The notes under the pieces are model-generated. The model had not been told where the DNA came from and ran no database searches. It saw only the letters and a list, made by a program, of their open reading frames with translations. This document shows positions 1 through 63,902 of a DNA stretch of 64,000 nucleotides, in pieces. Origin of the DNA: an uncultured Methanosarcinales archaeon (lineage in GTDB: Archaea > Nanobdellota > Nanobdellia > Woesearchaeales > GW2011-AR9); NCBI GenBank assembly GCA_964632045.1, contig CAZWBB010000001.1, positions 1-64,000 on the forward strand, written 5' to 3'. The position numbers and the translations under genes are program-made. Within the stretch, counting starts at the first letter, position 1; every line of letters begins with the position of its first letter.

Positions 1-156
1 GTGGGGGGAAATAATTCACGTTCACAATATCCCTCTCGGGCGGCTGGTTTCTACTGTAGCAATGACAACTTCCGTGTGGATGGCGATGGCAGCCTCGACG
101 ACCGGGGTCGTTCTCGTGGGGTGATTTATCCGCGAAGCGGCGAAACGAAAAAATGA
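1..156 (+). CDS. 3' fragment of a leader-family paralog (array A); C-terminus ...GRSRGVIYPRSGETKK
   Basis: Nt 1-150 are ~85% identical to 770-905, the C-terminal coding region of the next paralog. Stop TGA at 154-156 overlaps ATG 153 (ATGA). Confidence 0.6.
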   Translation: MGGNNSRSQYPSRAAGFYCSNDNFRVDGDGSLDDRGRSRGVIYPRSGETKK

Positions 157-908
157 ACATACTCAAACCACTACGACAATCAGGACTGCTTTCCGAAGAG
201 GAAGCGTTGAGAGACCTAGAGGACATCCCAATGGTGAGAGAAACATCCTCCCCGATCCCCTCAGGAAAGGATACTGGAAACATCATTCTTGATTGCCATG
301 CTGCTGAGAAAGGAGATAGAAGAACTCAGGATGAATGGATTGAATATTGGAATAAAAGTGACAGAGTAATGGCTTCCATGGCAGACTATTATCAGTATTT
401 CAAGCAATTGAAAGGGAATAATGATGAAGACAAAGTCAAGACGTTGCTTACCAGCCTGAGGGAAGATTTTGACCACCAGGAAAAAGGTAACTGGCTCATT
501 AGCAGTACCAGATTAGTCTATTCAAAAGATAATCTGGATGCAAGGATCATTCCTCATTATGGATGCGCTCGAGAGGAAGTAACAATAAAAGTTCCTTATT
601 ATGGTGGCGTCCCTATTACGCAGGTGGTCGGCGAGGGAGAAGGATTAACTTATCTGCAGACATTGTTTGGTACTGAGGATGAAGGGGAAGAGATAATTCA
701 GATATTGGAGTTTGTTAGCGATAGGAATAGAGACGTAATAAAAGTGTGGACGGCTGCTGTGGAAGACGCTTATACACGTTCACAATACCCCTCGCGGGCG
801 GCTGGTTTCGGCTATGGCGATGACGACTTCCATGTTGGTGGCGGCCTCTACGGCCGAGGTCGTTCTCGTGGGGTGATTTATCCGCGAAGCGGCGCGACGA
901 AAAAATGA
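153..908 (+). CDS. Leader-family paralog, subfamily B (N-term MNILKPLRQSGLLSEEEALRDLED; C-term GRGRSRGVIYPRSGATKK)
   Basis: ORF with conserved 25-aa N-terminal leader. Its body is similar to 2619..3347 (EWIEYWNK...MADYYQYFKQLKG). ATGA overlap with the next gene. Confidence 0.8.
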   Translation: MNILKPLRQSGLLSEEEALRDLEDIPMVRETSSPIPSGKDTGNIILDCHAAEKGDRRTQDEWIEYWNKSDRVMASMADYYQYFKQLKGNNDEDKVKTLLTSLREDFDHQEKGNWLISSTRLVYSKDNLDARIIPHYGCAREEVTIKVPYYGGVPITQVVGEGEGLTYLQTLFGTEDEGEEIIQILEFVSDRNRDVIKVWTAAVEDAYTRSQYPSRAAGFGYGDDDFHVGGGLYGRGRSRGVIYPRSGATKK

Positions 909-1768
909 ACATACTCAAACCATTAAGACCATCAGGACTGCTTTCTGAGGAGGAAGCGTTGAAAGATATAGAGAGTGCTCCTGATGCAGAAATTCCCAGA
1001 GACGATAACAAACAAGAAGTACAGGAAATGGGGAATAAACATCTCAGATTAGGTGTTGATTACGGACTGATCTACATCGACCGTGCTACCAGTGACCTGG
1101 TCATTACCGATGGGAAAGATTTTGAAGTCATTCTGAGGGAAGTAAATCTCAATGACGTATTCTATGATGAAAAACTCTACTACACAAAAGATTGCAGCCT
1201 GTATGAATGGCCATCCAGATTGCTGCACGACTACGGTGTGAACGGAACAGGTGGTAAAGAGGCTGTAGGTATCGGCAAACATGACGGAAGACTCATTGTC
1301 ACTCTTCCCTATGTTGGTGAGATCGCTGATGAGCAGGGCAACATAATCTTTGAAGGATTGCAGCAACCCATCAGTGTCTGTTCCTACAAAGGAGAATTAT
1401 ACCACACTGAAGCGTCCCAGGGCAGAGGCCTGGTGAAGACGCCTTATCAGCTTGTTCATCGGCCAGGCAGGTACGCCCTAGGACTTGCTGCTGGGGAAAA
1501 AATATTTTTTGGGGGAGAAGATGAAACATTATACAGCTATGACGGACAGGTGCAACGTGTATGTAATCTGGGATCAACCTGCGGTCTCCTGGAATGTGTT
1601 GGAGATGTTCTCTACGCAGCAGGCCTCCATAAGATAGGCATCCACTCCATCCCATTAGATGATCCATCAGCAAGGAAGACTTTACTGCGAGGACATGTGC
1701 CTGAGGGTATAAGGGCAATGACAGCTGTCCCTATGACTTTCATACATGAACTAAGCGAAAACAAATGA
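905..1768 (+). CDS. Leader-family paralog, subfamily A (putative beta-propeller-like repeats; LYYT..LYEWPS motif)
   Basis: Conserved N-terminal leader. Repeated LY(Y/F)T and GxxY blade-like motifs. Conserved C-terminal V.PMTFI motif shared with 6500, 7291, 8124, 8978 and 9810. Confidence 0.8.
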   Translation: MNILKPLRPSGLLSEEEALKDIESAPDAEIPRDDNKQEVQEMGNKHLRLGVDYGLIYIDRATSDLVITDGKDFEVILREVNLNDVFYDEKLYYTKDCSLYEWPSRLLHDYGVNGTGGKEAVGIGKHDGRLIVTLPYVGEIADEQGNIIFEGLQQPISVCSYKGELYHTEASQGRGLVKTPYQLVHRPGRYALGLAAGEKIFFGGEDETLYSYDGQVQRVCNLGSTCGLLECVGDVLYAAGLHKIGIHSIPLDDPSARKTLLRGHVPEGIRAMTAVPMTFIHELSENK

Positions 1769-2622
1769 ACATCCTAAAACCACTTAAACACGGAAACGTA
1801 CTGACGGAAGAGGAAGCGTTGAAGGATTTGGAGAATGCATCATCTACATCTCAGAATATTCCGATTACTGAAAATGTTTCTGAGACGACGTATTCCTGCT
1901 CAACCCTGGGAATTGATTGCGGACTAGTGTTAATCAATAAGACCAACCAGGAGATTTGTACAACTGATGGTGAAGATGTAACTTGTATCGGTAGAGAAAG
2001 AGGCTACCACAGATTGCACTACAACGGAACTGACTTGTATTACACCCGACATAACAAACTATACAGATGGCCTAGTCAGGAAGTCCAGAAGTATTATTAT
2101 AAAAAGAAAGCTGAGTGTACATCTGGTATAACTGAGTATGATGGAGAGACTCTAGTAGGTTTCCAGGATGGCATCTATAATGAAAAAGGAGAACGAAAGT
2201 ATGGGTCCGGACCCGTCAAGGACTTGATCAGATTTCAGAACAGACTATTCAGCATTCAGTTATGGAGAGGCAAATATTCATTTGTGGAAGTAGGAGTGGA
2301 AGCAAAGAAAGAAATAACATTCAGATCAAGGCTTGCTAAAATGGATGACCTTCTTTTACTGGGGCTTGAATGCGGCTCCGTCTTTTCATTTGATGGTGTA
2401 GACATGAGCCTGGTTTTCGCCTCCAACAGCCAGCAACGTTTATTATGTGCAACAAGTGATCGCCAGATGTATTTTGGCGGATTTGGCGAGGAAGGACTAT
2501 GGACACGTTCTTTGTATCCCCGGAGAAAGTCAGAGGCAATATTGCAGGAAAAGATCAAGAGTTGCACAGCAGGTATCACAGTACCACTTGATTTCATAGA
2601 ACACTTAAACAAAACAAAATGA
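1765..2622 (+). CDS. Leader-family paralog, subfamily A
   Basis: N-term MNILKPLKHGNVLTEEEALKDLE. LYYTRHNKLYRWPS motif. ATGA overlaps on both sides. Confidence 0.8.
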   Translation: MNILKPLKHGNVLTEEEALKDLENASSTSQNIPITENVSETTYSCSTLGIDCGLVLINKTNQEICTTDGEDVTCIGRERGYHRLHYNGTDLYYTRHNKLYRWPSQEVQKYYYKKKAECTSGITEYDGETLVGFQDGIYNEKGERKYGSGPVKDLIRFQNRLFSIQLWRGKYSFVEVGVEAKKEITFRSRLAKMDDLLLLGLECGSVFSFDGVDMSLVFASNSQQRLLCATSDRQMYFGGFGEEGLWTRSLYPRRKSEAILQEKIKSCTAGITVPLDFIEHLNKTK

Positions 2623-3347
2623 ACATCCTAAAACCACTTAAACACGGAAATGTAATGACTGAAGAGGAAGCGTTGAAGGATTTGGAAGGTGTACCATCCA
2701 TAGAACCAGTGAGTGCTGCGGATCAGCCGACTGGACTTGGAATCGTCCTACTCGATCAAGGTAATTCAGAAGACTCAAAAACCCAGCCTGAGTGGCTAGA
2801 ACATTATGACAAGATCACTGATGGTCGTGTATTCGCTGCTATGAGCGACTATTACGGATTCTTCAAACGGAAGATGGATCAGAAAACCGACAAACAGTAC
2901 GCTAAGGCGATGTTATGGCCCAATAATATTTCAGAATGCGACAGTCATCTTCTTACCAGCACCAGGATCGAACTCTTGCCATCCGGTCACACAAAAATAA
3001 TTCAACATTACGGCTGCAAGTATCCAGAACATATCAGCAAAAGAACTATCGTCGCACCGGTATTACACAAGATACCCCTCTCAGAAGCGATCAGGACAAA
3101 TTCGGCAAGGAGATACCTAAAAGCTCTGTTTGACACCGAAGACAAGACCGTCAAAATAATCCAAACGCTCGAGTTTATCGCAGGTGTAGACAGGAGAGAC
3201 ATAACCATTTCCACAATCCCCGATCCTCCCAGCCCTATTGAAAGTGATCAGAGAGCATCCGGGTTCAATTGTTTTTCCTCGGGGCTCGATATCTATACCT
3301 ACTCCCTTATAGGTGTGGGGCAATCACGAGGAGCATCTTACCCATGA
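2619..3347 (+). CDS. Leader-family paralog, subfamily B
   Basis: Same leader. Body is paralogous to 153..908 (EWLEHYDK...MSDYYGFFKRK; C-term GVGQSRGASYP). Confidence 0.8.
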   Translation: MNILKPLKHGNVMTEEEALKDLEGVPSIEPVSAADQPTGLGIVLLDQGNSEDSKTQPEWLEHYDKITDGRVFAAMSDYYGFFKRKMDQKTDKQYAKAMLWPNNISECDSHLLTSTRIELLPSGHTKIIQHYGCKYPEHISKRTIVAPVLHKIPLSEAIRTNSARRYLKALFDTEDKTVKIIQTLEFIAGVDRRDITISTIPDPPSPIESDQRASGFNCFSSGLDIYTYSLIGVGQSRGASYP

Positions 3348-4030
3348 ACATCCTAAAACCACTTAAACACGGAAATGTACTGACGGAAGAGGAAGCGTTG
3401 AAAGATATAGAGAGTGCTCCTGAGGTACTGGATAGCCCGCCGGGAACATGGAACACTATGCCTGAATTTCCAACCTATGGGCAGGCAATCACCCACATTG
3501 GATTGGAATATGCAAAAGGATATTGTAAAGGTCCACTTCACCAACACAATGACAGGACTATGATCCGCCCGCCCACCGTTAAAGAAATCGCGAAAGCCTG
3601 CGTTGAGGACTACGAAACAACAACTACTGCTGATAGTAGCAACCGAAGTGTCGAAGACAGGACTTTCCTGCTGAGAAGTAAGTGGAATACCTGCGCAGCT
3701 ACCATCAATAGTTTCTGGTCTGATAAATGGAAAATAAACCCAGTCTCCGATGAACTTATAACACTGGACAAAAGCACAGAAGTAAGGTATTCAAAGCTTG
3801 AATGGAATGTATTCAGTCTATTGGAAGTAGAAGGACGTGACTTCTGGAGGATTCTTATTAGTGATGATTCTTTGTATCAAGCATATCAAAAGATTGTCAG
3901 TCCGTATGGTCCGTTGGAAGTGGAGATAGAAGAACCATCAAAACAATACCTCAGAAACATCCGGGTTGAAGGGCAGAAACTGGTATTCTGTCCATTGAAT
4001 ATTACAGCAAGGTTCCTGGCAATAAAATGA
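3344..4030 (+). CDS. Leader-family paralog, subfamily C
   Basis: The internal ATG at 3344 restores the conserved leader MNILKPLKHGNVLTEEEALKDIESAP. The track ORF start at 3269 is a 5' run-on. Body is paralogous to 4027..4719 (MIRPPTVKEIAKACVEDYET...). Confidence 0.8.
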   Translation: MNILKPLKHGNVLTEEEALKDIESAPEVLDSPPGTWNTMPEFPTYGQAITHIGLEYAKGYCKGPLHQHNDRTMIRPPTVKEIAKACVEDYETTTTADSSNRSVEDRTFLLRSKWNTCAATINSFWSDKWKINPVSDELITLDKSTEVRYSKLEWNVFSLLEVEGRDFWRILISDDSLYQAYQKIVSPYGPLEVEIEEPSKQYLRNIRVEGQKLVFCPLNITARFLAIK

Positions 4031-4719
4031 ACATCCTAAAACCACTTAAACACGGAAATGTACTGACGGAAGAGGAAGTGTTGAAAGATATAGAGAGTGC
4101 GCCGATCGTTGACAGACCCATAGAGACTTCCAGATACGTTTGCATACGGGAACGCAATAACTATAAGGGAGCTCTTAATTCGCTGTTAATTTATCATGCT
4201 GCCTGCAGACGCAGCGGTCCGCTCTACGAGCATGATGGAAAGATGATAATACGGCCTCCTACAGTAAAAGAAGTAATACAGGCTAGAGTTGAGGATTATG
4301 AAACGCTCACCAATCCGGATGGCAGCAAGAGAAGTCTGGAGGAGAGGACCTGCTTGATTAGAACAAGTTTCAACACCTGCGCCGGTGTTTTGTTCAATCC
4401 TCATACTCAAAAATTAAAACTGAACCCTCTCTGCAAAGAATTGATAACACTGAACAGATCTTGTGGACGTAGAATATTCTATCAGGATTTTGAGGGCGAA
4501 GAATACTACCCTGGTGGTCTGATTGGACCTGATCGCTGGAGGATTTTTACTGAGGATGAGCAGTTACGTCAGGCATACTGGAATATCTCTAATACTGTGG
4601 ATACACCGAAGGAGCCAGTTCAAACTCCGGAAAAATACTTGAACAATGTTAGAGTTGGAGGAACTACTCTTACATTCTATCCCCTAAGCAAAAAAACAAC
4701 ATTCCTGCAGATAAGATGA
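4027..4719 (+). CDS. Leader-family paralog, subfamily C
   Basis: The leader nucleotides are almost identical to 3344-3420. Body is MIIRPPTVKEVIQARVEDYETLTNPDGSKRSLEER. Confidence 0.8.
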   Translation: MNILKPLKHGNVLTEEEVLKDIESAPIVDRPIETSRYVCIRERNNYKGALNSLLIYHAACRRSGPLYEHDGKMIIRPPTVKEVIQARVEDYETLTNPDGSKRSLEERTCLIRTSFNTCAGVLFNPHTQKLKLNPLCKELITLNRSCGRRIFYQDFEGEEYYPGGLIGPDRWRIFTEDEQLRQAYWNISNTVDTPKEPVQTPEKYLNNVRVGGTTLTFYPLSKKTTFLQIR

Positions 4720-6506
4720 CATTAGAACAACTGACACAAGACATAGTGGACGAAGAAACAGCAAAGTTTGATTACAAAGGAGATGTCCGTATCAAAGAGC
4801 AGATGGGAGATCCCTGCTTCTCCGGAAGGATCGACCTGCTGACAACTGCTAAGATAGAGATCTGCTACAATCCGGATTATGAGAAAGAAGCAGAATCCAT
4901 GGAGAAGATTGTCCCTCAACCTTTCAGGAAAGCTTTCACTGCAGTGATGCAGCACGAGCTGAACCATAAAGGGGGAGGAAGATTCCTTGGCTGTCCCAGG
5001 ACGATTGATCTGCACGCAGAGAAAGTTCTGGAACCAGTTTCGGAAGTGCTGAAAAGGGAGGATTTCCCTAACGTACCTGTGAGCAGCGGACAGACACTCT
5101 ATGCCTATATGGCAAATATGGTTGAAGATATCATCGACAATTCTGAACTTGGCAACAAAACGGACCATATCGGTATGTTTCTTTGCTACCATGATGATGC
5201 TATTCATTGTAAAGAAGGATTAAGTCCCCTCTTCAGCGCCTTTGTCAAGCTGCAGGAAGTTCTCTTCGGCGGGAGAAGAAGCAGGAAGCTGTTAAATGGC
5301 CACCATCCGAAAGATGACAAGGTTGACCAGGCGGTTGAAAACGTCATGCAACGCACAGGGATGAGCAGGATGCAGCGTCAGGTTGTTACAAGAAGGAAGA
5401 AGAAAAGAAAAGATGTATTTGACCGAAGGAGGGCAATGGAGCACTACACAGATGAAGAGAACTGGCCGGAAATATCCAAGATCATCACGGAAGAGTTCTG
5501 CGAACTGATCGACAAGGATGAACTTGAAAATCCACAATACATCGAGGAAACCTTCCTTCCACTTAAAGGAGAAGGCGACTCCTTCGGCGATGAGATGGAG
5601 GACGCTGACACTAAGATGAAGTTTGTCTGGAAGAAGTATCAGGGCAAAGGACAGGAATCCGGCGAGGATGATACTGAATTCCAACCACCCGCCTATCTGG
5701 AAAGCTTCGAAGCTCTTGACCTGCTCTATCAAAGATTGGCCAGGAATCTCCACATTAAGACGGAAAGCTCTACTCACAGTGAATCGATGCCAGTGATGTG
5801 GTACGGTAACCGGCCGGCAACACCAAGAGACAGGAGGGTAAGAGTCCGACTGGGAAGAGACGGTTGTCTTGAGCTGACTGCCAAGAGATATCATGAGGAC
5901 GAAGAGATCGAGTACACTGAAAGCATGCCCGGTCTGCCCGAGATAAAGTTTGTCATGCTGGATACCTCTTCCTCGATGCAATGTAGTATCGATGGCAGCC
6001 AGGGGAAGATCATGAATCCCTGGGCCTCCGAAAGTGTACAGTGGGATGATCGAAGCCGATACCATCATGCCCTTATCGCCTGGTATGGGCTGCTGGAACT
6101 GCTGCGGAGACAGGGAACATTGCGACACACTTCCGTAAAGCTTGCCAACTATTCCTGGGAGACCAAGAAAGCGGTCAATCTGAAAGAGGCCAAAAGGCTG
6201 GCCTTGAGTCCTCAGTTCGGAGGAACACAACTTGAACTACCTCAGATTAGGGACATGTTTGGTACAAAGCAGTTGGTAATCTCATTATCTGATGGAGATG
6301 TGATGAACTGGTATGACATAAAGACAGAATACATCAAACGGGCCAGGAACAACCATTATTTCCATCTACAGATAGGTGGGCAGAGTAATATGTCCATGGA
6401 TCTGGAGAAGGCAGGATTGCATGTGGTCTATGATGATGGCAGCAACCTGGGCAATATTGTTGTTGATCTGACAAAACCGTTTATCGTGAGGAAGAAGAAA
6501 TGGTAG
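4716..6506 (+). CDS. HExxH putative zinc metallopeptidase N-domain fused to a vWA domain (DUF2201-like architecture)
   Basis: HELNH motif (AVMQHELNHKGGG). MIDAS DxSxS (VMLDTSSSMQ) plus downstream GGT and SDGD vWA motifs. Embedded in array A with ATGA overlap at 4716-4719. Confidence 0.75.
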   Translation: MTLEQLTQDIVDEETAKFDYKGDVRIKEQMGDPCFSGRIDLLTTAKIEICYNPDYEKEAESMEKIVPQPFRKAFTAVMQHELNHKGGGRFLGCPRTIDLHAEKVLEPVSEVLKREDFPNVPVSSGQTLYAYMANMVEDIIDNSELGNKTDHIGMFLCYHDDAIHCKEGLSPLFSAFVKLQEVLFGGRRSRKLLNGHHPKDDKVDQAVENVMQRTGMSRMQRQVVTRRKKKRKDVFDRRRAMEHYTDEENWPEISKIITEEFCELIDKDELENPQYIEETFLPLKGEGDSFGDEMEDADTKMKFVWKKYQGKGQESGEDDTEFQPPAYLESFEALDLLYQRLARNLHIKTESSTHSESMPVMWYGNRPATPRDRRVRVRLGRDGCLELTAKRYHEDEEIEYTESMPGLPEIKFVMLDTSSSMQCSIDGSQGKIMNPWASESVQWDDRSRYHHALIAWYGLLELLRRQGTLRHTSVKLANYSWETKKAVNLKEAKRLALSPQFGGTQLELPQIRDMFGTKQLVISLSDGDVMNWYDIKTEYIKRARNNHYFHLQIGGQSNMSMDLEKAGLHVVYDDGSNLGNIVVDLTKPFIVRKKKW

Positions 6507-7294
6507 AGACTCTAAAACCATTAAGAAAAGGACCAAGAATCCTCACAGAGGAAGAAGTCTTGGCTGATCTGGCAGGATTACAGGAGCAACCAAATTCATC
6601 TGAAGAAGAAAAGTGGAAAGGATTAGGAATCGATTATTGTCTTGCATTTGCAGATGATATGATCCGATGTACCGATGGAAACCGATCAGACGTGTTTCTG
6701 GAAGAGAGAACTGATTGCCTGACTTACAGCAGCCAGTTGTATTACATAATGGAAGAATCACTTTACAGATGGCCAAAAGAACAGATATTTGACTTTCAGA
6801 AAGCACCACATGGGGTGGCTGCGTACCAAGACGGAGTTGTTATCTCATTTCCATTTTCAGTCTGTGATCAGGGAGGTAATACAATCTTTGAGAACAGGAA
6901 ATCTTTCATAAATCTGATAGAAGTGTTCAACGGAGAGATATACTATGCTACCGGCGTGAACAATGGCGAACTTGTAAAAGCTCCAAATACTTCGATAGAA
7001 ACATTTGGCGAACCACTATTCGGAATCACTACTTCAGAAAATAACTTGTATATCTCCGGACGTCATAATATTTACCGATACGATGGCAAATCTGTAAAAA
7101 GGATATTTCAATATGATGGCCAGATACAATGCATAAAATATGTTCAAGATGTAAGTGGCGAATATCTGTTCATTGGAAATACAAATGAAAATATCGTCCG
7201 CCTATACTTGCAGAATACAAAAAACAAAACATACATCCCTGATACAAAATCTGCATCTTCGATAGCAGTAATACCCATGACCTTTGTAAAATGA
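6500..7294 (+). CDS. Leader-family paralog, subfamily A (variant leader MVETLKPLRKGPRILTEEEVLADLAG)
   Basis: LYYIMEESLYRWPKE motif. C-term IAVIPMTFVK. Confidence 0.75.
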   Translation: MVETLKPLRKGPRILTEEEVLADLAGLQEQPNSSEEEKWKGLGIDYCLAFADDMIRCTDGNRSDVFLEERTDCLTYSSQLYYIMEESLYRWPKEQIFDFQKAPHGVAAYQDGVVISFPFSVCDQGGNTIFENRKSFINLIEVFNGEIYYATGVNNGELVKAPNTSIETFGEPLFGITTSENNLYISGRHNIYRYDGKSVKRIFQYDGQIQCIKYVQDVSGEYLFIGNTNENIVRLYLQNTKNKTYIPDTKSASSIAVIPMTFVK

Positions 7295-10688: not shown

Positions 10689-10726
10689 CACAATCTTTAT
10701 TAACAAAGTTACATTTGTATGCACAA

Positions 10727-10819: not shown

Positions 10820-10951
10820 TGCTGAAGGACGTTATTTTCTTCGGTGCCATAACTATTACTCTGTTTTTTATTCTAAGCAATTATTTATTCAACAAGGAAT
10901 GCTTTGACACCCTCCAGACGATCTGCACTATCGCTCTTCTTGTGGAGAGTG

Positions 10952-12763: not shown

Positions 12764-12815
12764 TACAACAAAATTTATAAATACAGCATATACTTCTCCT
12801 GCCAGTTGGGGAAAG

Positions 12816-32102: not shown

Positions 32103-32158
32103 CATTTTTAAATGATAGAAATTTAACTAATACTTTACAATATAAAAGAGGTGTCAAA

Positions 32159-41097: not shown

Positions 41098-41216
41098 TTT
41101 ACCCCAAAATTGGATTTAGATATCGCTGCTAGTATATAAGTTTTATGGTGCAGTACTACTCCCAAATAGCTACGCACGAAAACTTTATAAACCTCGGTGT
41201 TTGTCACCACAATTGT

Positions 41217-48390: not shown

Positions 48391-48392
48391 TT

Positions 48393-50055: not shown

Positions 50056-50072
50056 TTTTGGTTACCGCTCTT

Positions 50073-54932: not shown

Positions 54933-54947
54933 CTTTTGCCTACCTCA

Positions 54948-56384: not shown

Positions 56385-57367
56385 TTTTTTCCTCCAAATC
56401 TGTTTTCTAGTATGTTTTTTATCTCTGGAATGTCTACACTCCATGGATCGATAAGCCTGAAAGGTTCTTGTTCTATTACTTCTTCCGTCTCGTCTTCTTC
56501 CGCCTGTGGCTGTTGTTTTTGATGGGTTGCTTTCTTTCCTGTGATCAGAGATTCAAAAAACTCATAGATCATGTTCTTGTCGGAGCGGGTATATCCTATG
56601 GAGAGTCCTCTTTGGGAATCTGTGTTTTTGAATTCTTCTCGAAGAATCTCAAAATGCTTGTCTAGTTTTTTCCTTAGCCTTTTTATTCTCTGTTTGCTGA
56701 ATGGTCCTTTCACGCTTTTAATATCCTCGTAAGCACGCATGAACCTGTCAAGGAAAAAATCAGGGTTCTTCAGTTTTCTTTCGAGATGTTTATATGTGGG
56801 AATGTACCCAATTGCATGAAGTGGACCGCAGGGGCTACCTTTGTAGCCTTTGAGACCTGTCAACATTTCCGCTGCGAATAATCCTGCTACGACGGGCAGA
56901 TAGAGGCGTTCAGGAACCCCAAGATAAATGGAAGCTTCTGTCAATCCCAGGACTCCTGCAATAGAGGCTGCGAATCCAGGAAGGCGGCTTCTACGCAGAT
57001 ACGAGTCCCAGTGAGAGATGTATCCTCTTTTCCGGGTGAGTTGGACCTCGACGCTGCCTGGATGCCAGATTCTCCAGTGGCCTTCACTTAAGTATTCCAT
57101 ATAATCCTCCTCCTCATGCGGTACCTTTTGCCCTGTGGCAGATTCAGTCCTCTCCATGAGAGTACGGAAAAGTGGATAATCTTTCTCTTCAAGATCGGGT
57201 CTGAAAAGTACACCCTGGTAATAGTCGTTTTCGGAACTGCCAAGGTTCCTGTATAGGCGGACAATATACCCGTCTAAGGTTGTCTGCGCCATATACTTCC
57301 TTCTCTTCTTCACTTCAATGATATCTTTAAAGATTCCCTGGGAGAACCTCATGGTGGTGTAGCTCAT
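56381..57367 (-). CDS. C-tail-family paralog, cytoplasmic/membrane subtype (C-term LIDPWSVDIPEIKNILENRFGGKK)
   Basis: Family core (YYQGVLFRPDLEEKDYPLFRTLMER). GxxxG hydrophobic segment, then GPLHAIGYIP. Conserved C-tail. Confidence 0.75.
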   Translation of the reverse strand: MSYTTMRFSQGIFKDIIEVKKRRKYMAQTTLDGYIVRLYRNLGSSENDYYQGVLFRPDLEEKDYPLFRTLMERTESATGQKVPHEEEDYMEYLSEGHWRIWHPGSVEVQLTRKRGYISHWDSYLRRSRLPGFAASIAGVLGLTEASIYLGVPERLYLPVVAGLFAAEMLTGLKGYKGSPCGPLHAIGYIPTYKHLERKLKNPDFFLDRFMRAYEDIKSVKGPFSKQRIKRLRKKLDKHFEILREEFKNTDSQRGLSIGYTRSDKNMIYEFFESLITGKKATHQKQQPQAEEDETEEVIEQEPFRLIDPWSVDIPEIKNILENRFGGKK

Positions 57368-58137
57368 CTTTCCTTCCCTCCTTGCAGCACATTCTCTATC
57401 TCAGGGACTTCTACTTCCCACGGATCGACTACCCCAGTGGGGACCATTACCACAGATTCTGGCTCCTCTGCGTCCTCATCGAGTTCTGCATGTACCCCTA
57501 AAGCAGCGTAGTACACGGCACGCTCAAGTTTTAACAGATGTGGACTACGCATCTGTACAGAGAGACCTTTCTGAAATGCTGTAAATGGGAATAAATCTGT
57601 GATCAGATCATAATAGTAATCTATTTTCTCCTCCATCTTGCCAAGTTTTTTCAGGCTTAGTGAATCTCTATTATTATCAAATCTGGTGTATGCTTCCAGG
57701 AATCTATCAGGGATGTGATTGGGATGCAGGGCTTTGTTCTTTTGGAGGTAGTATGACAACATGAATCCGGCTTTTGCCCTAACTCCTGCAGGCAGCATTT
57801 TCGTCTGTTCCGGGTTGAGATGGATGGTAAGGTTATGACTGTCATAGTGCAGCTTCAATCCACCCCTGGCTAAATACTCGTCAAATGAATCTGAGTCATT
57901 CGCTATACCCCGCTTAGTTGCATTGGCAATCCTGTTGGTCATGTCCTTGAAAAAGTGAGAGAAGCTCTGAGGAGAGTGGATCACTGCCTGGAAATCCTTT
58001 TGGCCTGCCTCTCTATAGAGCCGGTAAAATCTATACCTTCCCAAATCAGTATGCATGTAGAAAGCACCATCTCTCCTGATCTCTAATCTACTTCTTCCAG
58101 TTACCTGGTCTGCCATGGTCGTTACCTGAAGAGTCAT
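57364..58137 (-). CDS. C-tail-family paralog (short, no hydrophobic segment; C-term VVDPWEVEVPEIENVLQGGKER)
   Basis: Conserved C-tail. GGAGG encoded by the GG codons precedes the next ATG. Confidence 0.7.
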   Translation of the reverse strand: MTLQVTTMADQVTGRSRLEIRRDGAFYMHTDLGRYRFYRLYREAGQKDFQAVIHSPQSFSHFFKDMTNRIANATKRGIANDSDSFDEYLARGGLKLHYDSHNLTIHLNPEQTKMLPAGVRAKAGFMLSYYLQKNKALHPNHIPDRFLEAYTRFDNNRDSLSLKKLGKMEEKIDYYYDLITDLFPFTAFQKGLSVQMRSPHLLKLERAVYYAALGVHAELDEDAEEPESVVMVPTGVVDPWEVEVPEIENVLQGGKER

Positions 58138-59108
58138 TCTCTCTTCACCTCCAACACATTCTCGATCTCAGGGATTTCTACACTCCAAGGGTCGATCAAT
58201 TTTACTGGTTCTGCTCTCTCTATAGGTTCTGCTGTCTCATCCGGAGATTCACCACACGCTACCCAATTATTTATCCCTGTGCTGAGATAGGCGATGCGTT
58301 CAAACACTCTGTCTTGGTCGGAGTTGACAAAAGTGATGGAGAATCCTTTCTGTTTGTAAGTTTGTTTGAATATCTCCTTGATAACCTCATAGTATAAGTC
58401 CATCTTGTTGATCATCTTCATGATTTTTCTTGGAGAAGCTGTCTTCTTTTTCTTTTCAAGAGCATTATGAGTCCGCATAAATCTTTCAGTGGCATAATCC
58501 GGATGCATCATCTTATTTTTGGCAAGGAACCATGCCGGAACGTAGCCGAGGGCATGGACAGGACCTACCCACTCTTTCCTTTCCACTAATGTAAATGCAC
58601 CGCCCATCCCTTCAAGAACTGAGTACATCATTCCAGCTAACACCATGTCACCACCACCTGATCCAAACTGCTCGTTATATGCCGCCAAAATAACTCCCGC
58701 AAAACCCGCCAACGTGCATACTGTCCCAGGAATGTGGGCGATGTTGGCCGCTCTTCTGTGTAGTCTTCCAGTGAATGGATATCCTTTGGTGTTTACATTC
58801 AATACAGAACCGTCAGAATAATTTTTCACCATCCCTTTTCTGGCGATGTAACCGTAATAATCATCGACATCATTGTCAACATGCTCCCCCGTGATATCCT
58901 CCATCCTGTCCGTAAGCAGCTTGAACAGAGCAGGATCCTTCTCTGTTGAAAAGACAGAACCCTCATATTTCTGACCTAAAGCATGATGCAATCGGGAGTA
59001 CAAGCCGTTACCATGACGGTCCTGAAAGTAGTACTCGTCATCTCTCTTGATGGATATCCTTTTGAAACCTTTTACAGTATCCTCGATTGTGGTTACTTTG
59101 TAGTTCAT
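58134..59108 (-). CDS. C-tail-family paralog (C-term LIDPWSVEIPEIENVLEVKRE)
   Basis: Start set at MNYKVTTIED (ATGA overlap with upstream stop at 59105-59108). Gly-rich hydrophobic segment, then GPVHALGYVP. Confidence 0.7.
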   Translation of the reverse strand: MNYKVTTIEDTVKGFKRISIKRDDEYYFQDRHGNGLYSRLHHALGQKYEGSVFSTEKDPALFKLLTDRMEDITGEHVDNDVDDYYGYIARKGMVKNYSDGSVLNVNTKGYPFTGRLHRRAANIAHIPGTVCTLAGFAGVILAAYNEQFGSGGGDMVLAGMMYSVLEGMGGAFTLVERKEWVGPVHALGYVPAWFLAKNKMMHPDYATERFMRTHNALEKKKKTASPRKIMKMINKMDLYYEVIKEIFKQTYKQKGFSITFVNSDQDRVFERIAYLSTGINNWVACGESPDETAEPIERAEPVKLIDPWSVEIPEIENVLEVKRE

Positions 59109-59833
59109 CTTCTTCCCCCCTGTGCTACGTTTTCTATCTCTGGTATGTCTACTTCCCATGGGTCGATGATTTCAGTTGGCACTGTTGCGATGATGGGCTG
59201 TTCTTCCACAACTTCCTCTTTGGATTCTTCAGCCACCCGAAGGATTTTGCTGTAATGATTGTATAGGAGGTATAGATTCCTGCTTCTGGTGAATAAAGAA
59301 AAACCGTTCTGTTTACCAGAAAAAATCTTATCAAGAAGGGAAAAATGCTGATCCAGTTCCTGACCCAAACGCAAGGCCTCATCCTTCTGGTTAAAGCCAA
59401 GGGTGTGGTATTCTTTGTGCGTCTGAAGGAATTCTTTCCACAATTCGTCTCCTGTTTCAACTAGTATGTCCTCGGCACCTGGTTCTGGGATCGTTATGTC
59501 GGTGTATTTAGTGTCGACAGATAAGCCTTTTCGATTTACAAAATTGATAAATTCTGCTGGAGAGGTATCTATCCCGGACGGTTTACCTTGCTTCTCTTCG
59601 ATTCTTTCAACCAACAGCTTAAAGAGGTTGTAGTCCTTTTCATCATCCGTGAAATCTGGTTTGAACAGAGTTCCAAGGTATTGGGCGACTGGGGGAATAC
59701 CGTTTTCCATCTTGTAGACCCTTAGAAACAGGCAATCATCCAGTTCTGCCTGAGCCAGCATCTTATCTCCGCATCTAATTTCGGTTACAGGTTTTCCAAA
59801 TCCTCTGTCTACTTCCTGAACTGAATAGCTCAT
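59105..59833 (-). CDS. C-tail-family paralog (MSYSVQEVDRGFGK N-type; C-term IIDPWEVDIPEIENVAQGGRR)
   Basis: N-terminus is near-identical to 60750 and 62704 members. Conserved C-tail. Confidence 0.75.
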   Translation of the reverse strand: MSYSVQEVDRGFGKPVTEIRCGDKMLAQAELDDCLFLRVYKMENGIPPVAQYLGTLFKPDFTDDEKDYNLFKLLVERIEEKQGKPSGIDTSPAEFINFVNRKGLSVDTKYTDITIPEPGAEDILVETGDELWKEFLQTHKEYHTLGFNQKDEALRLGQELDQHFSLLDKIFSGKQNGFSLFTRSRNLYLLYNHYSKILRVAEESKEEVVEEQPIIATVPTEIIDPWEVDIPEIENVAQGGRR

Positions 59834-60753
59834 CCTTTCACCCCCTGCAGCAAACTCTTGATTTCAGGAATGTCTACTTCCCATGGGTTGATTAGGGGCA
59901 ATGGTTGTCCTGAATCCTCTGGCTGTATCAGATGCTTTTGATTTCCTGTCTTTAGGTAAGAGAAAAAACCAAGTACTTCATCAAGGGTTCCTTTATAATG
60001 GATGGTAAGGCCCTGATAATCCTGAGTCTGGTGAAATTGTCCTTCCAGGAGTGGAATCAAAGGACATAATCTGTTTCTTAGAGACTGACATTCTCCGTAG
60101 TTCGTAGAATTTTCTGCCTTCAGGGCAATACCTACAGCTTTTTCCCACAACCAGGAAGGGTGGCTGAACTTGCGGGAGTAATATTGTTTGTATGGAAGGT
60201 GGCCTAGGCATCTAAGTGGACCAAGCCAGTATTTGGATTCTCTCTTTTCACCCAGATAAATGCCGATTAATAATTCTGGGGTTGTGGACATGAGGAAGGC
60301 GAGAGGTGCAGGAAGGCCAACTTGATTCAGCACACAGGCCCCGGCAGTTATTCCTGCTACTATGGTAGCGATGCCCAAAGGCAATGATTTATCGCGGGCA
60401 TAATCATCATAGCCGTAGGGGGTAAAACGGGTACTTTTATGATTGATTCTTAGAATTGTCTTATCAGAGTACTTAACAAGTCCCTCCCGTAGATATTTGG
60501 GATAGGTGCCAATGCTATTATCAATTTCGATCCCTGGATAATCCTCCAGAAAGGCTGTTAAGTTTTGAAATCTTTTATAATCAGCGGGCAAAATTTGCAG
60601 CGGTCTGAAGAGGACTCCATAAGCACAATCTTTGTGGCCCCATATCCTCAGGCAGTCTCCCTCCAAGGTGGTCTGCTGTAGGGATCTTTTGCCATCACTA
60701 AGGCAGCCTCCTCCAAGTATGGGATGAGTTCTGGTGACTATTCTATATGTCAT
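59830..60753 (-). CDS. C-tail-family paralog (C-term LINPWEVDIPEIKSLLQGVKG)
   Basis: Hydrophobic GxxxG segment, then GPLRCLGHLP. 3' ~45 nt are near-identical to the 60750 member. Confidence 0.75.
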   Translation of the reverse strand: MTYRIVTRTHPILGGGCLSDGKRSLQQTTLEGDCLRIWGHKDCAYGVLFRPLQILPADYKRFQNLTAFLEDYPGIEIDNSIGTYPKYLREGLVKYSDKTILRINHKSTRFTPYGYDDYARDKSLPLGIATIVAGITAGACVLNQVGLPAPLAFLMSTTPELLIGIYLGEKRESKYWLGPLRCLGHLPYKQYYSRKFSHPSWLWEKAVGIALKAENSTNYGECQSLRNRLCPLIPLLEGQFHQTQDYQGLTIHYKGTLDEVLGFFSYLKTGNQKHLIQPEDSGQPLPLINPWEVDIPEIKSLLQGVKG

Positions 60754-61769
60754 CCTTTCACCCCCTGCAGCAAACTCTTGATTTCAGGAGCATCTACGTC
60801 CCATGGGTTGGTGATCTTTGGCTTGTCATCTAATTCTGGAATATCCATCTCCCACGGATCGATGATCGGAAAAGAGTCCTCCTTCGCGAGTACGCTCTGT
60901 CTGCAGCAGTCTATTCCGGCGAAAGTTTCGTTTACTTTGTCCAGTATACCATCCCGGTAGCTGATGGAAAGACCTTTCTGTCTTTGGGTGTAAGGAAAGA
61001 TTGATGTAAGATATGAAAAGTATTTGTCTGCTTTTCTTTGCAGGAAGTATCTGCTTATTCTGTTGCTGCCTTGTAGTTTGTCGTTAGTGTGGAGAAATTC
61101 ATCCCATACTTTTGCCGGGCCGAGAATCCTTTCTCTCATGTACATATGGCTGAATGCCCAGCCTAAGGAGTGGAATGGGCCTGACCATCCTCTCTCTTTG
61201 AAATTGTGGAAGCCGGCGCAGATCTCAAAGATTCCCATGGCCATCATCCCTTCTAACATAGTACCTGGAAATCCGACTGATTGTATAAATGGTCCTCCAA
61301 TAGCAGCAGTACCAATCGCTGATGTCAGCAGACCGGGGATTCTGCCTTTCCAGCTGAGGTTCTTATCCAACCATTGTGATAACTGTCCTTGCCAGAACTT
61401 ATGTGAATTCCGTTCCAATTTTAGTTCAATTCCATCTACACTGGCATTGAGATACTGGTCACCCATCAGGTTCATCCTGTAAGCAGCAGGCGAAGTATCG
61501 ATACCACTCTTCTTTCCCGTGTAAGTTTCAATAGCTTCTACCATCGTCAGGAAATCCTGGTATCCAGCAGCATTAGCTCCAACCTTCTTGAAAAGTATCC
61601 CATGATGGTCCTTGTTGGCAAGAGGCACTCTATTCTCCTGCAGTCCATGATAGGTCCTGTAAAAAAATCCATCATCCAATTCCACCTGAGCCAGCATCTT
61701 CTTTCCACATCTCACTTCCGTGACCAGTTTTCCAAGTCCTCTGTCTACTTCATGGATGGAATAACTCAT
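60750..61769 (-). CDS. C-tail-family paralog with duplicated C-tail motif (IIDPWEMDIPELDDKPKITNPWDVDAPEIKSLLQGVKG)
   Basis: MSYSIHEVDRGLGKLVTEVRCG N-type. GPFHSLGW motif. Tandem duplication of the DPW..PEI tail. Confidence 0.75.
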   Translation of the reverse strand: MSYSIHEVDRGLGKLVTEVRCGKKMLAQVELDDGFFYRTYHGLQENRVPLANKDHHGILFKKVGANAAGYQDFLTMVEAIETYTGKKSGIDTSPAAYRMNLMGDQYLNASVDGIELKLERNSHKFWQGQLSQWLDKNLSWKGRIPGLLTSAIGTAAIGGPFIQSVGFPGTMLEGMMAMGIFEICAGFHNFKERGWSGPFHSLGWAFSHMYMRERILGPAKVWDEFLHTNDKLQGSNRISRYFLQRKADKYFSYLTSIFPYTQRQKGLSISYRDGILDKVNETFAGIDCCRQSVLAKEDSFPIIDPWEMDIPELDDKPKITNPWDVDAPEIKSLLQGVKG

Positions 61770-62707
61770 CTTTCCTTGCCTCCCTGCAGTACATTCTTTA
61801 TCTCAGGAATCTCTACTTTCCATGGGTCGATTATGGGGGATGGGTCCTGCACGATTTCTGGTTCTTCTTCTGTTATAACATTTATTCCTGCAAGTATGCC
61901 GGAAAAAGTGTTGTAAACATCATCCAGGCTCCTGCTGCTATAAGTGACAAAAAACCCTTTGGCTAGTTCAGTATTCTTGAATGTCTCTTCCAGGACGGCA
62001 AAACTATCCTCCATCTTTCTGCATAAAGAATGATATTTCTTCATGTTGCAGATATTACCCTGCAGGGACTGGGCTTTCTGGTGGGTTTTCGTTAGTTCAC
62101 TCAAGATTCTATCAGTGTTGTAGTATTTACTTAGGACATATTCAGTTGGAAAATGTGCCAGGCCGTGGAATCCTTCTCTGAGTTCCAGGCCTCTAATTAA
62201 TCCCACACTACAATCGGTTAAGGCTGCAAAAAGACCTACTGCTAGGGCAGCTCCGACACCTACACTCATCCCGGAGATAGCAGCAGAAGAAGTCAACCAA
62301 CCAGGAATACTGCCTTTCTTTCTGATATATTCATTGCGGTTAGGCGAATATTGGGTTCTGTCATTTGTATTGAGCTCCCATCTTAGGGGTCCTAATTTGT
62401 GATAGGTCCCTGGATGCTTGGCCCAACCCACGAAATTTTCTGGAGTGATGTCCAATCTGCTAGAGCGGCCTGATTGCTCCTCCATCCCTCGGGCCAGAAG
62501 CTCAAATGTATGGTAGAATTCTTGGTCCATTTTTGTCGGTCGGGTAAAGAGTACCCCTTGATAATCCGAACTGTTTCGGCCTCCATATATCCGAAGTTCA
62601 AGATCTCTCTCCAAAGATGTGACTCGGGCTAGATATGAATCATCGTACTTGATTTCCTCTACCTTGCTGCCATTGATCCAATCTCTGGTGTCTACAGAAA
62701 TGCTCAT
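61766..62707 (-). CDS. C-tail-family paralog (C-term IIDPWKVEIPEIKNVLQGGKER)
   Basis: Family core GVLFTRPTKMDQEFYHTFELLARGMEE. GxxxG segment. Confidence 0.75.
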   Translation of the reverse strand: MSISVDTRDWINGSKVEEIKYDDSYLARVTSLERDLELRIYGGRNSSDYQGVLFTRPTKMDQEFYHTFELLARGMEEQSGRSSRLDITPENFVGWAKHPGTYHKLGPLRWELNTNDRTQYSPNRNEYIRKKGSIPGWLTSSAAISGMSVGVGAALAVGLFAALTDCSVGLIRGLELREGFHGLAHFPTEYVLSKYYNTDRILSELTKTHQKAQSLQGNICNMKKYHSLCRKMEDSFAVLEETFKNTELAKGFFVTYSSRSLDDVYNTFSGILAGINVITEEEPEIVQDPSPIIDPWKVEIPEIKNVLQGGKER

Positions 62708-63702
62708 CCTTCCACCTCCAGTACATTCTGTATCTCAGGAATCTCTACATCCCACGGGTCGATGATGGGCGAGGGTTCTGAAGGATTTGCATCCTCCGCT
62801 TCTCCTAGCCCGCTTCCATGCAAGATCTCTGCGAAGGTATCATATAAAGAATCAAAATCATGACTCTTGAGACTGATCGAGAATCCTTTTTGGAGAGTTG
62901 TATAGCCGAATATCTCTCTCAGAAATCCAAAGTAATAATCCTGTGTGTTAAGGAGAGAAGTGTATCTCCTTTGCTGCTTGATACAGTTGCCCAAAGATTC
63001 CATTTCTCTATGTGCTTCCAGGAATTTACCAAGTACAAACTGGGGGTCTTTTAGATTTTTGAGGCGGTGAAAGAATGATGGAGCATGTCCCAAGCTGAAT
63101 AATGGACCTCGCCGGCCATTCTGTGCTGGCATACACAAATCAGCATATGTTCTGACTCCGATTATTTCAGGCAAGGTAGAGCAGCCTATGAGTGGCAACG
63201 AAATATATAGCGGAATATCTGGCGCGGAAAAAAGCACACTCGCTGACGTTAAAATACCTCCGATTGAGGTCATTAACCCCATAATATGAGGTGTTTCTCG
63301 CAGATACGAGTACATTTTTGGTGAGTAATAACCTGAATTCCAGACGTGCTTCGTAATACGTTTATCCTGGATGCGCAGTCTGAGATCGAAGTAGCCAACA
63401 TCTGCGCTTGCTCCCTTCCTTTTCACATAGTCGACGAAGCTGGGAGCGTCTGTCTTCAATCCACTGGACTTTCCTGTGCAGATTTCAATTCTCTCAACAA
63501 GGGATTTGAATGTTTGATGTTTCTTCTCATCAACCGTTAGGTTGGGAATGAATAGGACCCCTCTGTGACTTCGGCCATCATCATACGCCCGGAAATAGAC
63601 GTTATCATCTACAGCAACCTGGGCAATCCTCGTATTGTCACAAATAACTTCCGTGACCAGTTTTCCAAGTCCTCTGTCTACTTCATGGATGGAATAGCTC
63701 AT
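62704..63702 (-). CDS. C-tail-family paralog (MSYSIHEVDRGLGKLVTEV N-type; C-term IIDPWDVEIPEIQNVLEVEG)
   Basis: The 5' ~50 nt are near-identical to the 60750 member. GPLFSLGHAP motif. Confidence 0.75.
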   Translation of the reverse strand: MSYSIHEVDRGLGKLVTEVICDNTRIAQVAVDDNVYFRAYDDGRSHRGVLFIPNLTVDEKKHQTFKSLVERIEICTGKSSGLKTDAPSFVDYVKRKGASADVGYFDLRLRIQDKRITKHVWNSGYYSPKMYSYLRETPHIMGLMTSIGGILTSASVLFSAPDIPLYISLPLIGCSTLPEIIGVRTYADLCMPAQNGRRGPLFSLGHAPSFFHRLKNLKDPQFVLGKFLEAHREMESLGNCIKQQRRYTSLLNTQDYYFGFLREIFGYTTLQKGFSISLKSHDFDSLYDTFAEILHGSGLGEAEDANPSEPSPIIDPWDVEIPEIQNVLEVEG

Positions 63703-63902
63703 TCTCCCTCCTCCAGCACATCTATCGTCACCTGTACTATCGTCTGTGGTTTCAGTTTATCTTTTAGGAAAGAAGGAAGTATTATTACAGATTGCTTTCC
63801 GTGCTTGGCTATCTTCTTAGTCAGTACTATCGGCTTCAATATTACACCACCAACACATAAATGATGTGTCTCTAACACACCCCACAGAACCACCTGACAC
63901 AT
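63699..63902 (-). CDS. Small ORF at the head of the array-B operon, possibly an AbrB/SpoVT-like swapped-hairpin protein
   Basis: C-terminal ...KHGKQSVIILPSFLKDKLKPQTIVQVTIDVLEEGE resembles AbrB/MazE-type (K.G.vtIP..hR..L.h..GD.h.h). ATGA overlap with the first paralog. True start may be an internal TTG. Confidence 0.3.
   Translation of the reverse strand: MCQVVLWGVLETHHLCVGGVILKPIVLTKKIAKHGKQSVIILPSFLKDKLKPQTIVQVTIDVLEEGE

Follow-up and report, generated by a model that had tools for sequence, protein, structure and literature searches.

Introduction

Can a short peptide at the end of otherwise unrelated proteins serve as an address for an ATP-driven machine encoded in the same operon? The question is raised by a stretch of 64,000 nucleotides from an uncultured archaeon placed by GTDB in the Woesearchaeales of the Nanobdellota (assembly GCA_964632045.1, contig CAZWBB010000001.1, positions 1 to 64,000), hereafter referred to as the window. 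The window carries two gene arrays: array A on the plus strand (1–10688), whose proteins begin with a common peptide, and array B on the minus strand (49495–63839), whose proteins end with a different one. Each array also contains one gene for a protein with an HExxH motif in its N-terminal domain (N-domain) and a C-terminal von Willebrand factor A (vWA) domain with a metal ion-dependent adhesion site (MIDAS). These two proteins are called here adaptors A and B, the common peptides are called tags, and the tagged proteins clients. An earlier note on this DNA had described both arrays as one type of system with opposite polarity of the tag, and had proposed that each HExxH-vWA protein, together with an AAA+ ATPase, recognizes its own tag. 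The two arrays, with one HExxH-vWA gene in each, were all found where that note had placed them. The tag is probably a docking peptide for the adaptor and ATPase of its own operon, the two operons being separate ones of one broad design.

Terminal Tags and Their Conservation

Array A, which is cut off by the left edge of the window, contains 11 complete tagged clients (153–10688), the 3′ fragment of a further client (1–156) and the HExxH-vWA gene. The N-terminal tag has the consensus ILKPLKxGNVLTEEEALKDLE, and the clients start as M(N/E)ILKPL(K/R)xGxx(L/M)(T/S)EEE(A/V)L..L. Array B contains 11 tagged clients (51836–63702), which carry the C-terminal tag IDPWEVEIPEI and end as (I/V)(D/N)PWx(V/M)(E/D)(I/V/A)PE(I/L), together with an HExxH-vWA gene, an ATPase gene, a gene for a protein of 186 amino acids (p186) and an open reading frame (ORF) of 46 codons. 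The order of the operon is the 46-amino-acid ORF, eight clients of class B1, the AAA_5 ATPase, three clients with a hydrophobic anchor, the 588-amino-acid protein with the HEADH and DISPS motifs and the gene of p186. Coupling of the genes by 4-base ATGA overlaps, as claimed in the earlier note for both arrays, is present at 7 of the 11 junctions of array A and at 9 of the 13 junctions of array B, with one more in array B if the ATPase starts at its homologous ATG. The remaining four junctions of array A have overlaps of 4 (GATGACAT), 7, 13, and 17 bases.

The tags are far better conserved than the proteins that carry them. Mean amino-acid identity is 66% in the A tags and 68% in the B tags and 21–22% in the rest of the same proteins, and a variable, low-complexity linker lies between each tag and the body; linkers rich in P, T, Q, and E come after the tags. 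The B tag stands 6–12 codons ahead of the stop codon and is followed by a variable tail. At the DNA level, the earlier note had described mosaic identity at the tag-encoding ends. This holds for the peaks, which reach 98.5% over 66 nucleotides in array A and 89.6% over 48 nucleotides in array B (the tag-coding 77 nucleotides of genes 3344–4030 and 4027–4719 differ by 2 mismatches), but the identity is uneven, with a mean of 50–58% at the third codon positions of the tags. The lower identity at third positions than in the peptide indicates that it is chiefly the peptide that is under selection, and that some conversion or duplication has occurred recently. The conservation of the tags exceeds chance, and the observation is confirmed.

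The bodies of the clients are diverse. Those of array A fall into at least three unrelated classes, namely lectin-like bodies, bodies beginning with IRPPTVKE and propeller-like bodies. The profile of the propeller-like class matched Reg_prop and PQQ propellers in the PDB (E 1.6e-4 to 8.5e-4), and the C-type-lectin-like class of gene 153–908 (CLecA) recurs in the related loci L009, L014, L021, L030, and others. The clients of array A have no Sec signals. Array B has two classes of bodies in the window and more in related loci. Its anchor-type clients have a K/P-rich linker ahead of the C-terminal tag, and one of the three reached the threshold of a simple hydropathy scan; a central, moderately hydrophobic segment is present in six of the eight B1 clients and absent from those starting at 57364 and 59105. 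Conserved His motifs were found in B clients, e.g., GP(L/V)H..G among the B1 clients and, in class B2, WHHG and DGIHP. The client encoded by 60750–61769 (minus strand) has two tandem C-terminal tags, PIIDPWEMDIPELDD followed by KITNPWDVDAPEIK. Searches of the PDB with the client sequences, including comparison with the variable protein AvpA, found nothing, and no hits were obtained with Pfam, NCBIfam or PADLOC for adaptor A, for any of the client classes or for p186. The names of the closest homologs are those of Woesearchaeota, Pacearchaeota, and Nanoarchaeota, and identical genes are present in JGI metagenome 3300009374.

Co-variation of Tags and Adaptors in Related Loci

A census was made of 39 loci around relatives of adaptor A from genomes (A-type) and 34 loci around relatives of adaptor B from metagenomes (B-type), 73 in total, in which tags were detected with hidden Markov models (HMMs) of the window tags and by clustering within each locus. 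The HMM of the N-terminal tag was confined to A-type loci and that of the C-terminal tag to B-type loci, with three isolated weak exceptions (E up to 1). The comparison of adaptor family with tag type that the earlier note had suggested was run at the level of loci, and it turned out as predicted: N-terminal tags occur only with the adaptor A family (39 loci) and C-terminal tags only with the adaptor B family (34 loci). At least two ORFs with a common N-terminus were found in 23 of the 39 A-type loci, and in 3 of the 34 B-type loci (L053, L054, and L069), where they are incidental and unrelated to the A tag. At least two ORFs with a common C-terminus were found in many A-type loci, as the variable ends of targets of diversity-generating retroelements (DGRs; ...LGVR), and in 9 of the 34 B-type loci (13 in L053 and 9 in L054).

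The tag motifs are kept where the adaptors are only 46–62% (A) or 40–57% (B) identical, and tag sub-types change along with the sub-clades of the adaptors. The A-tag sub-types are LKP(L/I)..G..(L/I)(T/S).EE, IIG(D/N)(K/R)....DP.LA and I.IP...(F/W/L)G......(Y/M); the same sub-type is common to all targets in a locus, and the pattern of strand, Gly and helix is kept. Besides the clients, the inventory of the 73 loci holds only the ATPase, the adaptor, p186 and a small AbrB-like gene. The ATPase of the locus's own type is present in 22 of the 39 A-type and 31 of the 34 B-type loci and that of the other type in none of either; p186 is present in none of the A-type and 24 of the B-type loci. In bacterial-like B-type loci the B1 client is single and already tagged (D(V/I)W(R/H).x(I/V)), and in DPANN loci B1 is multiplied and the tag is found on other bodies as well. 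The bacterial-like loci lie directly beside a pair of HflK/HflC-like genes of the SPFH family (12025–13950 in L058 and 12011–13887 in L062). PADLOC gave no hits.

Linkage of Array A to Diversity-Generating Retroelements

A reverse transcriptase (RT; RVT_1, 2.7e-24) is encoded in 21 of the 39 A-type loci and in none of the 34 B-type loci, and adenine-specific pairs of template repeat (TR) and variable repeat (VR) were found in 15 of the 39. One example is L004, with one TR upstream of the RT gene and four tagged genes that each end in a matching VR at the 3′ side; here 45 of 45 mismatches (15/15, 10/10, 10/10, and 10/10) fall at template adenines. The RT-bearing A-type loci are textbook DGRs with the tagged genes as targets. 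The usual order is small ORF, ATPase A, one or more targets, adaptor A, target, TR, and RT. In some A-type DGR loci, namely L020 (12598–13821) and L030 (12477–13721), the reading frame of the RT includes the TR in its 5′ end, and the RT ORF first translates a target-like peptide, ...ARFNANSDRANLNCNRN....

The module of adaptor A was also found without RT in four loci with full flanks (L011, L014, L015, and L018), and the clients of L011 are of the propeller type, like those of the window. These loci tie the adaptor/ATPase pair to the tagged clients and not to retrohoming. In L014 (4183–12975), seven N-tagged lectin-like clients with variable-type ends (…ALGVR…) surround the adaptor gene; no RT was found within 10 kb on either side.

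The window itself belongs among the RT-less cases: neither an RT gene among its ORFs nor a TR/VR pair was found within it. The sequence of 1–156 differs from that of 153–908 mostly in the first two bases of NNY codons, and by one 6-nucleotide indel. A GC hairpin (CCGCGAAGCGG) followed by a run of A lies 3′ of both, as it does after the VRs of L003 and L004. The NNY differences, the hairpin and the A-run are consistent with past or present action of a DGR. If the genome has an RT, a TR, and an A-type ATPase, these would lie outside the window.

The HExxH-vWA Adaptors

In the pairwise comparison of the two adaptors that the earlier note had proposed, BLASTP gave no significant match (best E = 0.06), and hhalign with small alignments of 21 sequences gave 2%. 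When deep alignments (119 and 51 sequences) were split by domain, a collinear match was obtained in both halves: the N-domains align with E 7e-5, HExxH on HExxH, and the vWA halves with E 2e-5 and the MIDAS residues aligned. In a joint MAFFT alignment of 16 N-domains of both families, P53, H80, E81, H84, N134, D138, L179, and L193 are invariant. About 54 residues after HExxH, both families have an invariant N-x3-D motif, which their distant members keep as well. From these profiles it is concluded that adaptors A and B are distant homologs of the same architecture and no recent duplicates, in agreement with the earlier description of the two copies as divergent and specialized.

Adaptor A has H80, E81, H84, N134, and D138 invariant in its N-domain and a complete MIDAS (D416, S418, S420, T504, and D526). 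The C-terminal domain has a vWA fold, and across the family its MIDAS takes the form of an invariant DxSxS...T...D. The protein has no match in Pfam and no sequence match in the PDB. Its family, which comprises 44 clusters at 90% identity, all archaeal, and for which a set of 1.84 billion proteins yielded only 351 clusters at 50% identity, is confined to DPANN archaea.

Adaptor B consists of the N-domain with HEADH, a disordered linker rich in K, a MIDAS-bearing vWA domain (D415, S419, and D516 invariant), and a conserved C-terminal tail (FRLFKTYGIA). It matches VWA in Pfam and, in a profile search of the PDB, NorD (9qhd_G, E 2.6e-17). With its AlphaFold2 (AF2) model (pLDDT 81.6), Foldseek placed NorD on top (6e-11), followed by the MIDAS domain of Midasin. 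In the model, a low-confidence insertion (361–405) stands ahead of the vWA core, and the extreme C-terminus of the protein is highly conserved. The family comprises 52 clusters at 90% identity, which come from DPANN archaea and a small number of bacteria. The annotation of one member names it a nitric oxide reductase activation protein.

The joint N-domain profile found nothing in the PDB, and no match of the HExxH N-domain to a zincin fold or a peptidase-family profile was found. An N-terminal helix, three strands, the HExxH helix and more helices are predicted in this order, which would fit a small zincin. The DUF2201-type metallopeptidase-vWA family was considered as a candidate and gave no match. 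Scans of IMG/VR with both adaptors found no viral relatives, and therefore a virus-borne origin is not supported.

ATPases and Accessory Proteins

ATPase B matches AAA_5 in Pfam (5e-9) and, in PDB profile searches, Midasin (8.6e-49), CbbQ (1.4e-24) and NorQ (5e-21). It has an extra N-terminal domain of about 230 amino acids, and its GPTGNGKS and EE columns are invariant. In jackhmmer searches, p186 is linked only to this N-terminal domain. ATPase A, known from the related loci, is a conserved protein of 400–480 amino acids encoded next to adaptor A, with the Walker A motif near residue 60 and a C-terminal extension; it is a divergent MoxR protein, whose best match in the PDB is the MoxR protein 2r44 (E 3e-6). 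The two ATPases match each other in hhalign with 96.6% probability (E 5e-10), by which they are shown to be homologs, both being MoxR-class AAA+ proteins.

The earlier note had assigned an AAA+ partner to each array, and none was found among the ORFs of array A within the window. A 4.6-kb contig of the same sample (L076), 99.9% identical to window positions 898–3574, encodes a 458-amino-acid ATPase A (599–1975) directly upstream of window gene 905–1768, with another propeller client before it. In the window and in the ENA contig L077, a lectin-like client stands at that place instead. The switch between L076 and the window (at about 898–905 of the window) coincides exactly with the tag repeat of about 75 nucleotides, and the junction may be a recombination variant or an assembly artefact at this repeat. 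On either reading, the population encodes an A-type ATPase in array A.

Relatives of the 46-amino-acid ORF that heads array B, 40–65% identical to it, immediately precede the ATPase gene in about a dozen A-type loci; the B-type loci L047 and L056 are headed by such ORFs too. They were seen in L004, L007, L012, L020, L021, L028, L031, L033, L034, L039, L041, L047, and L056. The motif is …ITK.IAKHGKQSVI.IPSFL...LKPKTIV…, and one copy has a weak match to PF04014 (MazE/AbrB; E 0.007). No other component that the two system types share comes near it in similarity, and the protein is a putative regulator of the SpoVT/AbrB type. The proposal that both arrays belong to one system type holds at the level of superfamilies only, where adaptors and ATPases are homologous. 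Below that level, A-type loci are mostly DGR cassettes, whereas B-type loci lack RT and have a NorQ-like ATPase and p186.

Comparison with Known Systems

As in NorQ/NorD and CbbQ/CbbO, the CbbQ/NorQ/Midasin-type AAA_5 protein of system B adjoins a vWA protein of about 590 amino acids. Adaptor B shares with NorD the succession of N-domain, long disordered linker and C-terminal vWA/MIDAS domain as well as a conserved extreme C-terminus, and the hydrophobic segments of several B clients would parallel the membrane-bound cNOR. In NorQD, a finger of the NorD vWA domain sits in the NorQ pore, the NorD C-terminus contacts the ring, and the MIDAS or the linker of NorD has been proposed to contact the client (PMC13036017). 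System B differs from these systems in several respects. Neither the window nor the related loci that were read contain nor or Rubisco genes; the neighbours are the tagged clients. ATPase B carries the extra domain at its N-terminus, and a paralog of this domain is encoded separately. HExxH is invariant in the N-domain of adaptor B, for which no sequence similarity to the N-domains of solved NorD structures was detected. The clients, finally, are a multigene family that is recognizable by its C-terminal peptide tag.

System A is closest in content to the DGR-associated MoxR-vWA (VMAP-ternary) conflict systems (Kaur et al. 2020, PMC7159879; Dore et al. 2024, PMC10907252), in which fusions of vWA with FGS/CLec domains have been reported. 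Its relatives likewise combine MoxR, vWA, and DGR-diversified lectin-fold proteins, and the peptidase-like domain of adaptor A takes the effector position N-terminal to vWA. Unlike in those systems, the lectin-like targets are separate from vWA, often several per locus and N-tagged, and no VMAP-like third component was seen in the gene inventory, as judged without a VMAP profile. System A is restricted to DPANN, in contrast to the VMAP-ternary systems of multicellular bacteria, and RT-less versions with propeller clients exist, including that of the window.

In Rea1/Midasin, a MIDAS domain pulls Rsa4 and Ytm1, so that one AAA_5-type motor handles several clients, each with an N-terminal recognition module and a beta-propeller. 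The clients of array A similarly consist of an N-terminal tag and propeller-like bodies, and Midasin is the best PDB match of ATPase B. The differences are that the tags have about 20 residues in place of ubiquitin-like (UBL) domains, that ATPase and MIDAS domain are separate proteins, and that the tags have no invariant acidic residue.

DGRs have been reported to be abundant in DPANN archaea, and the roles and partners of their variable proteins have not been established (PMC5006420, PMC5758913). AvpA of a nanoarchaeotal DGR (PMC5006420) resembles the system A targets in its C-terminal variable region, its occurrence in small-genome archaea and the presence of several targets per DGR. It differs in that it has no sequence match to the clients described here and in that its VR is internal, with 46 residues after it; the AvpA paper mentions no N-terminal tag and no ATPase/vWA partner (PMC5006420). 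The DGRs of RT clade 5F in CPR (Candidate Phyla Radiation) and DPANN have been stated to lack links to domains of conflict systems (PMC10907252). The link of the array A family to DGRs in archaea is apparently unreported; a mention in the principal survey of DPANN DGRs, Paul et al. 2017 (Nat Microbiol 2:17045), is possible.

Possible Function of the Tags

Docking is the reading that was judged probable at the outset. In each operon the MoxR-class AAA+ ATPase would work with an adaptor of N-terminal HExxH and C-terminal vWA/MIDAS domains. The client genes around it would form an expanded set with unrelated bodies, in which the terminal tag of about 20 residues is the only common part, and through the tag a variety of binding or membrane modules would plug into the adaptor and ATPase. 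The vWA domain would couple to the ATPase ring, as in NorQD, CbbQO, and Rea1; the MIDAS, the linker or the N-domain of the adaptor would hold the client; and ATP hydrolysis would remodel, assemble or release it. The HExxH site may cut the tag, hold a metal for insertion or be structural. System B would be a NorQ/NorD-like remodelling motor in which a single ancestral B1 client has multiplied and the tag has spread to partly hydrophobic proteins; candidate readers of its tag are the N-domain of ATPase B and its paralog p186. System A is a DPANN-restricted family, usually part of a DGR that has hypermutated C-type-lectin-like clients as targets, and its tag would replace the covalent vWA-lectin fusion of the bacterial MoxR-vWA-DGR systems, giving a split form. 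That each machine reads its own tag, as the earlier note had suggested, fits the co-variation in the 73 loci: tag type and sub-type do follow the adaptor, but direct recognition is only inferred from this. A more specific version is possible and is held here only tentatively, namely that the systems are split plug-in receptors of DPANN in which terminal peptides dock DGR lectin-like domains, propellers, and membrane proteins. With the same reserve, these would exist in two mirror-image versions, an N-terminal tag with a C-terminally extended ATPase and a C-terminal tag with an N-terminally extended one.

Several points weigh against docking by a common design. The co-variation is also expected from shared descent of whole operons. 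Support for the homology of the adaptors is moderate (63% and 78% probability) and is obtained only with deep alignments, and for the HExxH N-domain no relative was detected among solved structures and Pfam, including the N-domains of canonical NorD. No acidic residue is invariant across clades in either tag, and hence a simple contact between MIDAS and a carboxylate is not supported. As regards the window, the NNY differences are consistent with DGR action; however, there is a 6-nucleotide indel between 1–156 and 153–908, and neither TR nor RT is present. With RT, TR, and ATPase A all missing from the window, array A could be a copy that has decayed or been rearranged, and the L076 junction may be an artefact. 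The B clients are described as partly hydrophobic, and their membrane topology rests on a crude hydropathy scan.

Among the alternatives, the one that survives best takes the HExxH domains for active zincin peptidases. Each would recognize and cut its own tag, which would resemble a leader at the N-terminus in A and a tail at the C-terminus in B, and the AAA+ protein would feed substrates to it. The invariance of HExxH and of N-x3-D on a later helix in both families, the element order compatible with a minimal zincin and the variable low-complexity linker that parts tag from body all agree with cleavage, and the effector position of vWA proteins is known to hold peptidases, rarely metallopeptidases (PMC7159879). 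Cleavage is nevertheless rather unlikely, given that the domain matches no peptidase family by fold or profile and that no cleavage-site residue is conserved beside the tags across clades. Many vWA-fused peptidase domains in related systems are inactive (PMC7159879), and the characterized MoxR-vWA pairs remodel clients or insert metals without degradation (PMC13036017).

In another alternative, the machines insert a metal into the clients, as with NorQD, CobST and other MoxR-vWA pairs; HExxH holds the metal, and the tags only recruit. NorD, the closest solved relative of adaptor B, is an iron-insertion factor (PMC13036017), and the B clients have conserved His-containing motifs. The notion is improbable in view of the unrelated bodies in each array (at least three), among them hypermutated lectin-like domains with no obvious metal centre, and of the lack of known metalloenzyme genes in or beside either array.

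To the same low degree it is conceivable that the tags are sorting or assembly signals for other machinery (export, surface display or a filament) and that the AAA+ and vWA genes are co-regulated helpers. The DGR targets of DPANN have been proposed to mediate host interactions, their function not being established (PMC5006420); the P/T/Q/E-rich linkers are typical of displayed proteins, and A clients without Sec signals would need a non-classical route. Against this, the genes that always accompany tagged clients in the 73 loci are limited to those of the adaptor, the ATPase and the small AbrB-like protein and, in B, that of p186, and the tag sub-types shift with the adaptor sub-clades.

Finally, that the conserved ends are functionless by-products of tandem duplication, gene conversion or ATGA coupling signals would suit the nearly identical tag-coding DNA (2 mismatches in 77 nucleotides; up to 98.5%) and the joining of the alternative contig L076 exactly at the tag, but is hardly credible beside a mean third-position identity of 50–58% against 66–68% in amino acids, motifs kept at adaptor identities of 46–62% (A) and 40–57% (B), a B tag that stands 6–12 codons ahead of the stop codon with a variable tail after it, and the same tag on bodies of unrelated fold.

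Encapsulin-type cargo signals, archaeosortase signals and class III pilin signals were also tried as identities of the tags and rejected, since genes for a shell or a sortase are absent and the tags lack any hydrophobic stretch.

Gene Content of the Window

The features of both arrays and of the region between them are collected in Table 1. The gene content of the window points to a DPANN archaeon, as do the names of the closest homologs; it includes a short triosephosphate isomerase of archaeal type, an Lrp/AsnC regulator and a prepilin peptidase along with class III pilin-like proteins. Its HflK/HflC-like pair lies about 9 kb from array B, and this SPFH neighbourhood of array B may be a coincidence.

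Table 1. Features of arrays A and B and of other genes in the 64,000-nucleotide window.
Feature	Position	Strand	Remarks
Array A client, 3′ end only	1–156	+	C-terminus resembling C-type lectin (CLec) and VR; aligns with 753–908; cut by window edge
Array A client, CLec-like	153–908	+	N-terminal tag; ends ...GRSRGVIYP; body class is DGR target in related loci
Two array A clients	905–1768, 1765–2622	+	N-terminal tag; beta-propeller-like bodies
Array A client	2619–3347	+	N-terminal tag; second member of CLec-like class
Two array A clients	3344–4030, 4027–4719	+	N-terminal tag; third body class (IRPPTVKE...)
HExxH-vWA type A (adaptor A), 596 amino acids	4716–6506	+	HELNH 80–84; LDTSSSM 415–421
Five array A clients	6500–7294, 7291–8127, 8124–8990, 8978–9826, 9810–10688	+	N-terminal tag; propeller-like bodies
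Ser/Thr protein-kinase-like gene	12753–13793	+	Motif in the two kinase-like genes, in order of position: HRDVKPANI
Third SPFH gene	27822–28880	+	
Prepilin-peptidase-like membrane protein	31248–32102		Followed by class III signal proteins
Class III signal (pilin-like) proteins	32075–32710, 33621–34172		
Cysteine-rich protein, 679 amino acids	34700–36739	-	N-terminal hydrophobic segment; many repeated C-x-C-rich modules
HflK/HflC-like (SPFH) pair	38987–41097	-	
Ser/Thr protein-kinase-like gene	41145–42893	+	HRDIRPSNI
p186, 186 amino acids	49495–50055	-	Final gene of B operon; paralog of N-terminal extra domain of array B ATPase
HExxH-vWA type B (adaptor B), 588 amino acids, NorD-like	50073–51839	-	HEADH 78–82; DISPS 415–419
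Three array B clients	51836–52870, 52867–53943, 53940–54932	-	N-terminal hydrophobic anchor; hydrophobic C-terminal segments
MoxR-class AAA_5 ATPase type B	54948–56384	-	Walker A GPTGNGKS and Walker B intact; start set by homologs
Class B1 clients 1–4 of eight	56381–57367, 57364–58137, 58134–59159, 59105–59833	-	Common N-domain (MSYSIHEVDRGLGK...); C-terminal tag
Class B1 clients 5–8 of eight	59830–60753, 60750–61769, 61766–62707, 62704–63702	-	Common N-domain (MSYSIHEVDRGLGK...); C-terminal tag
AbrB/MazE-like small ORF, 46 amino acids	63702–63839	-	Heads B operon; ATGA joint to first client

Significance

Overall, the analysis describes a DPANN-restricted adaptor/ATPase pair that is a near-constant neighbour of DGR targets, the N-terminal tag of which also marks proteins outside DGRs. 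The main additions to earlier knowledge are the linkage of array A to DGR cassettes and the family-wide occurrence of terminal tags in both systems. Array B appears to follow the same logic around a NorQD-like motor, which makes it a natural comparison and may point to a wider range of clients for MoxR-vWA chaperones. Should the tags prove to be portable docking peptides, they may find use as tools, and if the plug-in reading is true, it would provide the first mechanistic handle on how the variable proteins of archaeal DGRs are deployed.

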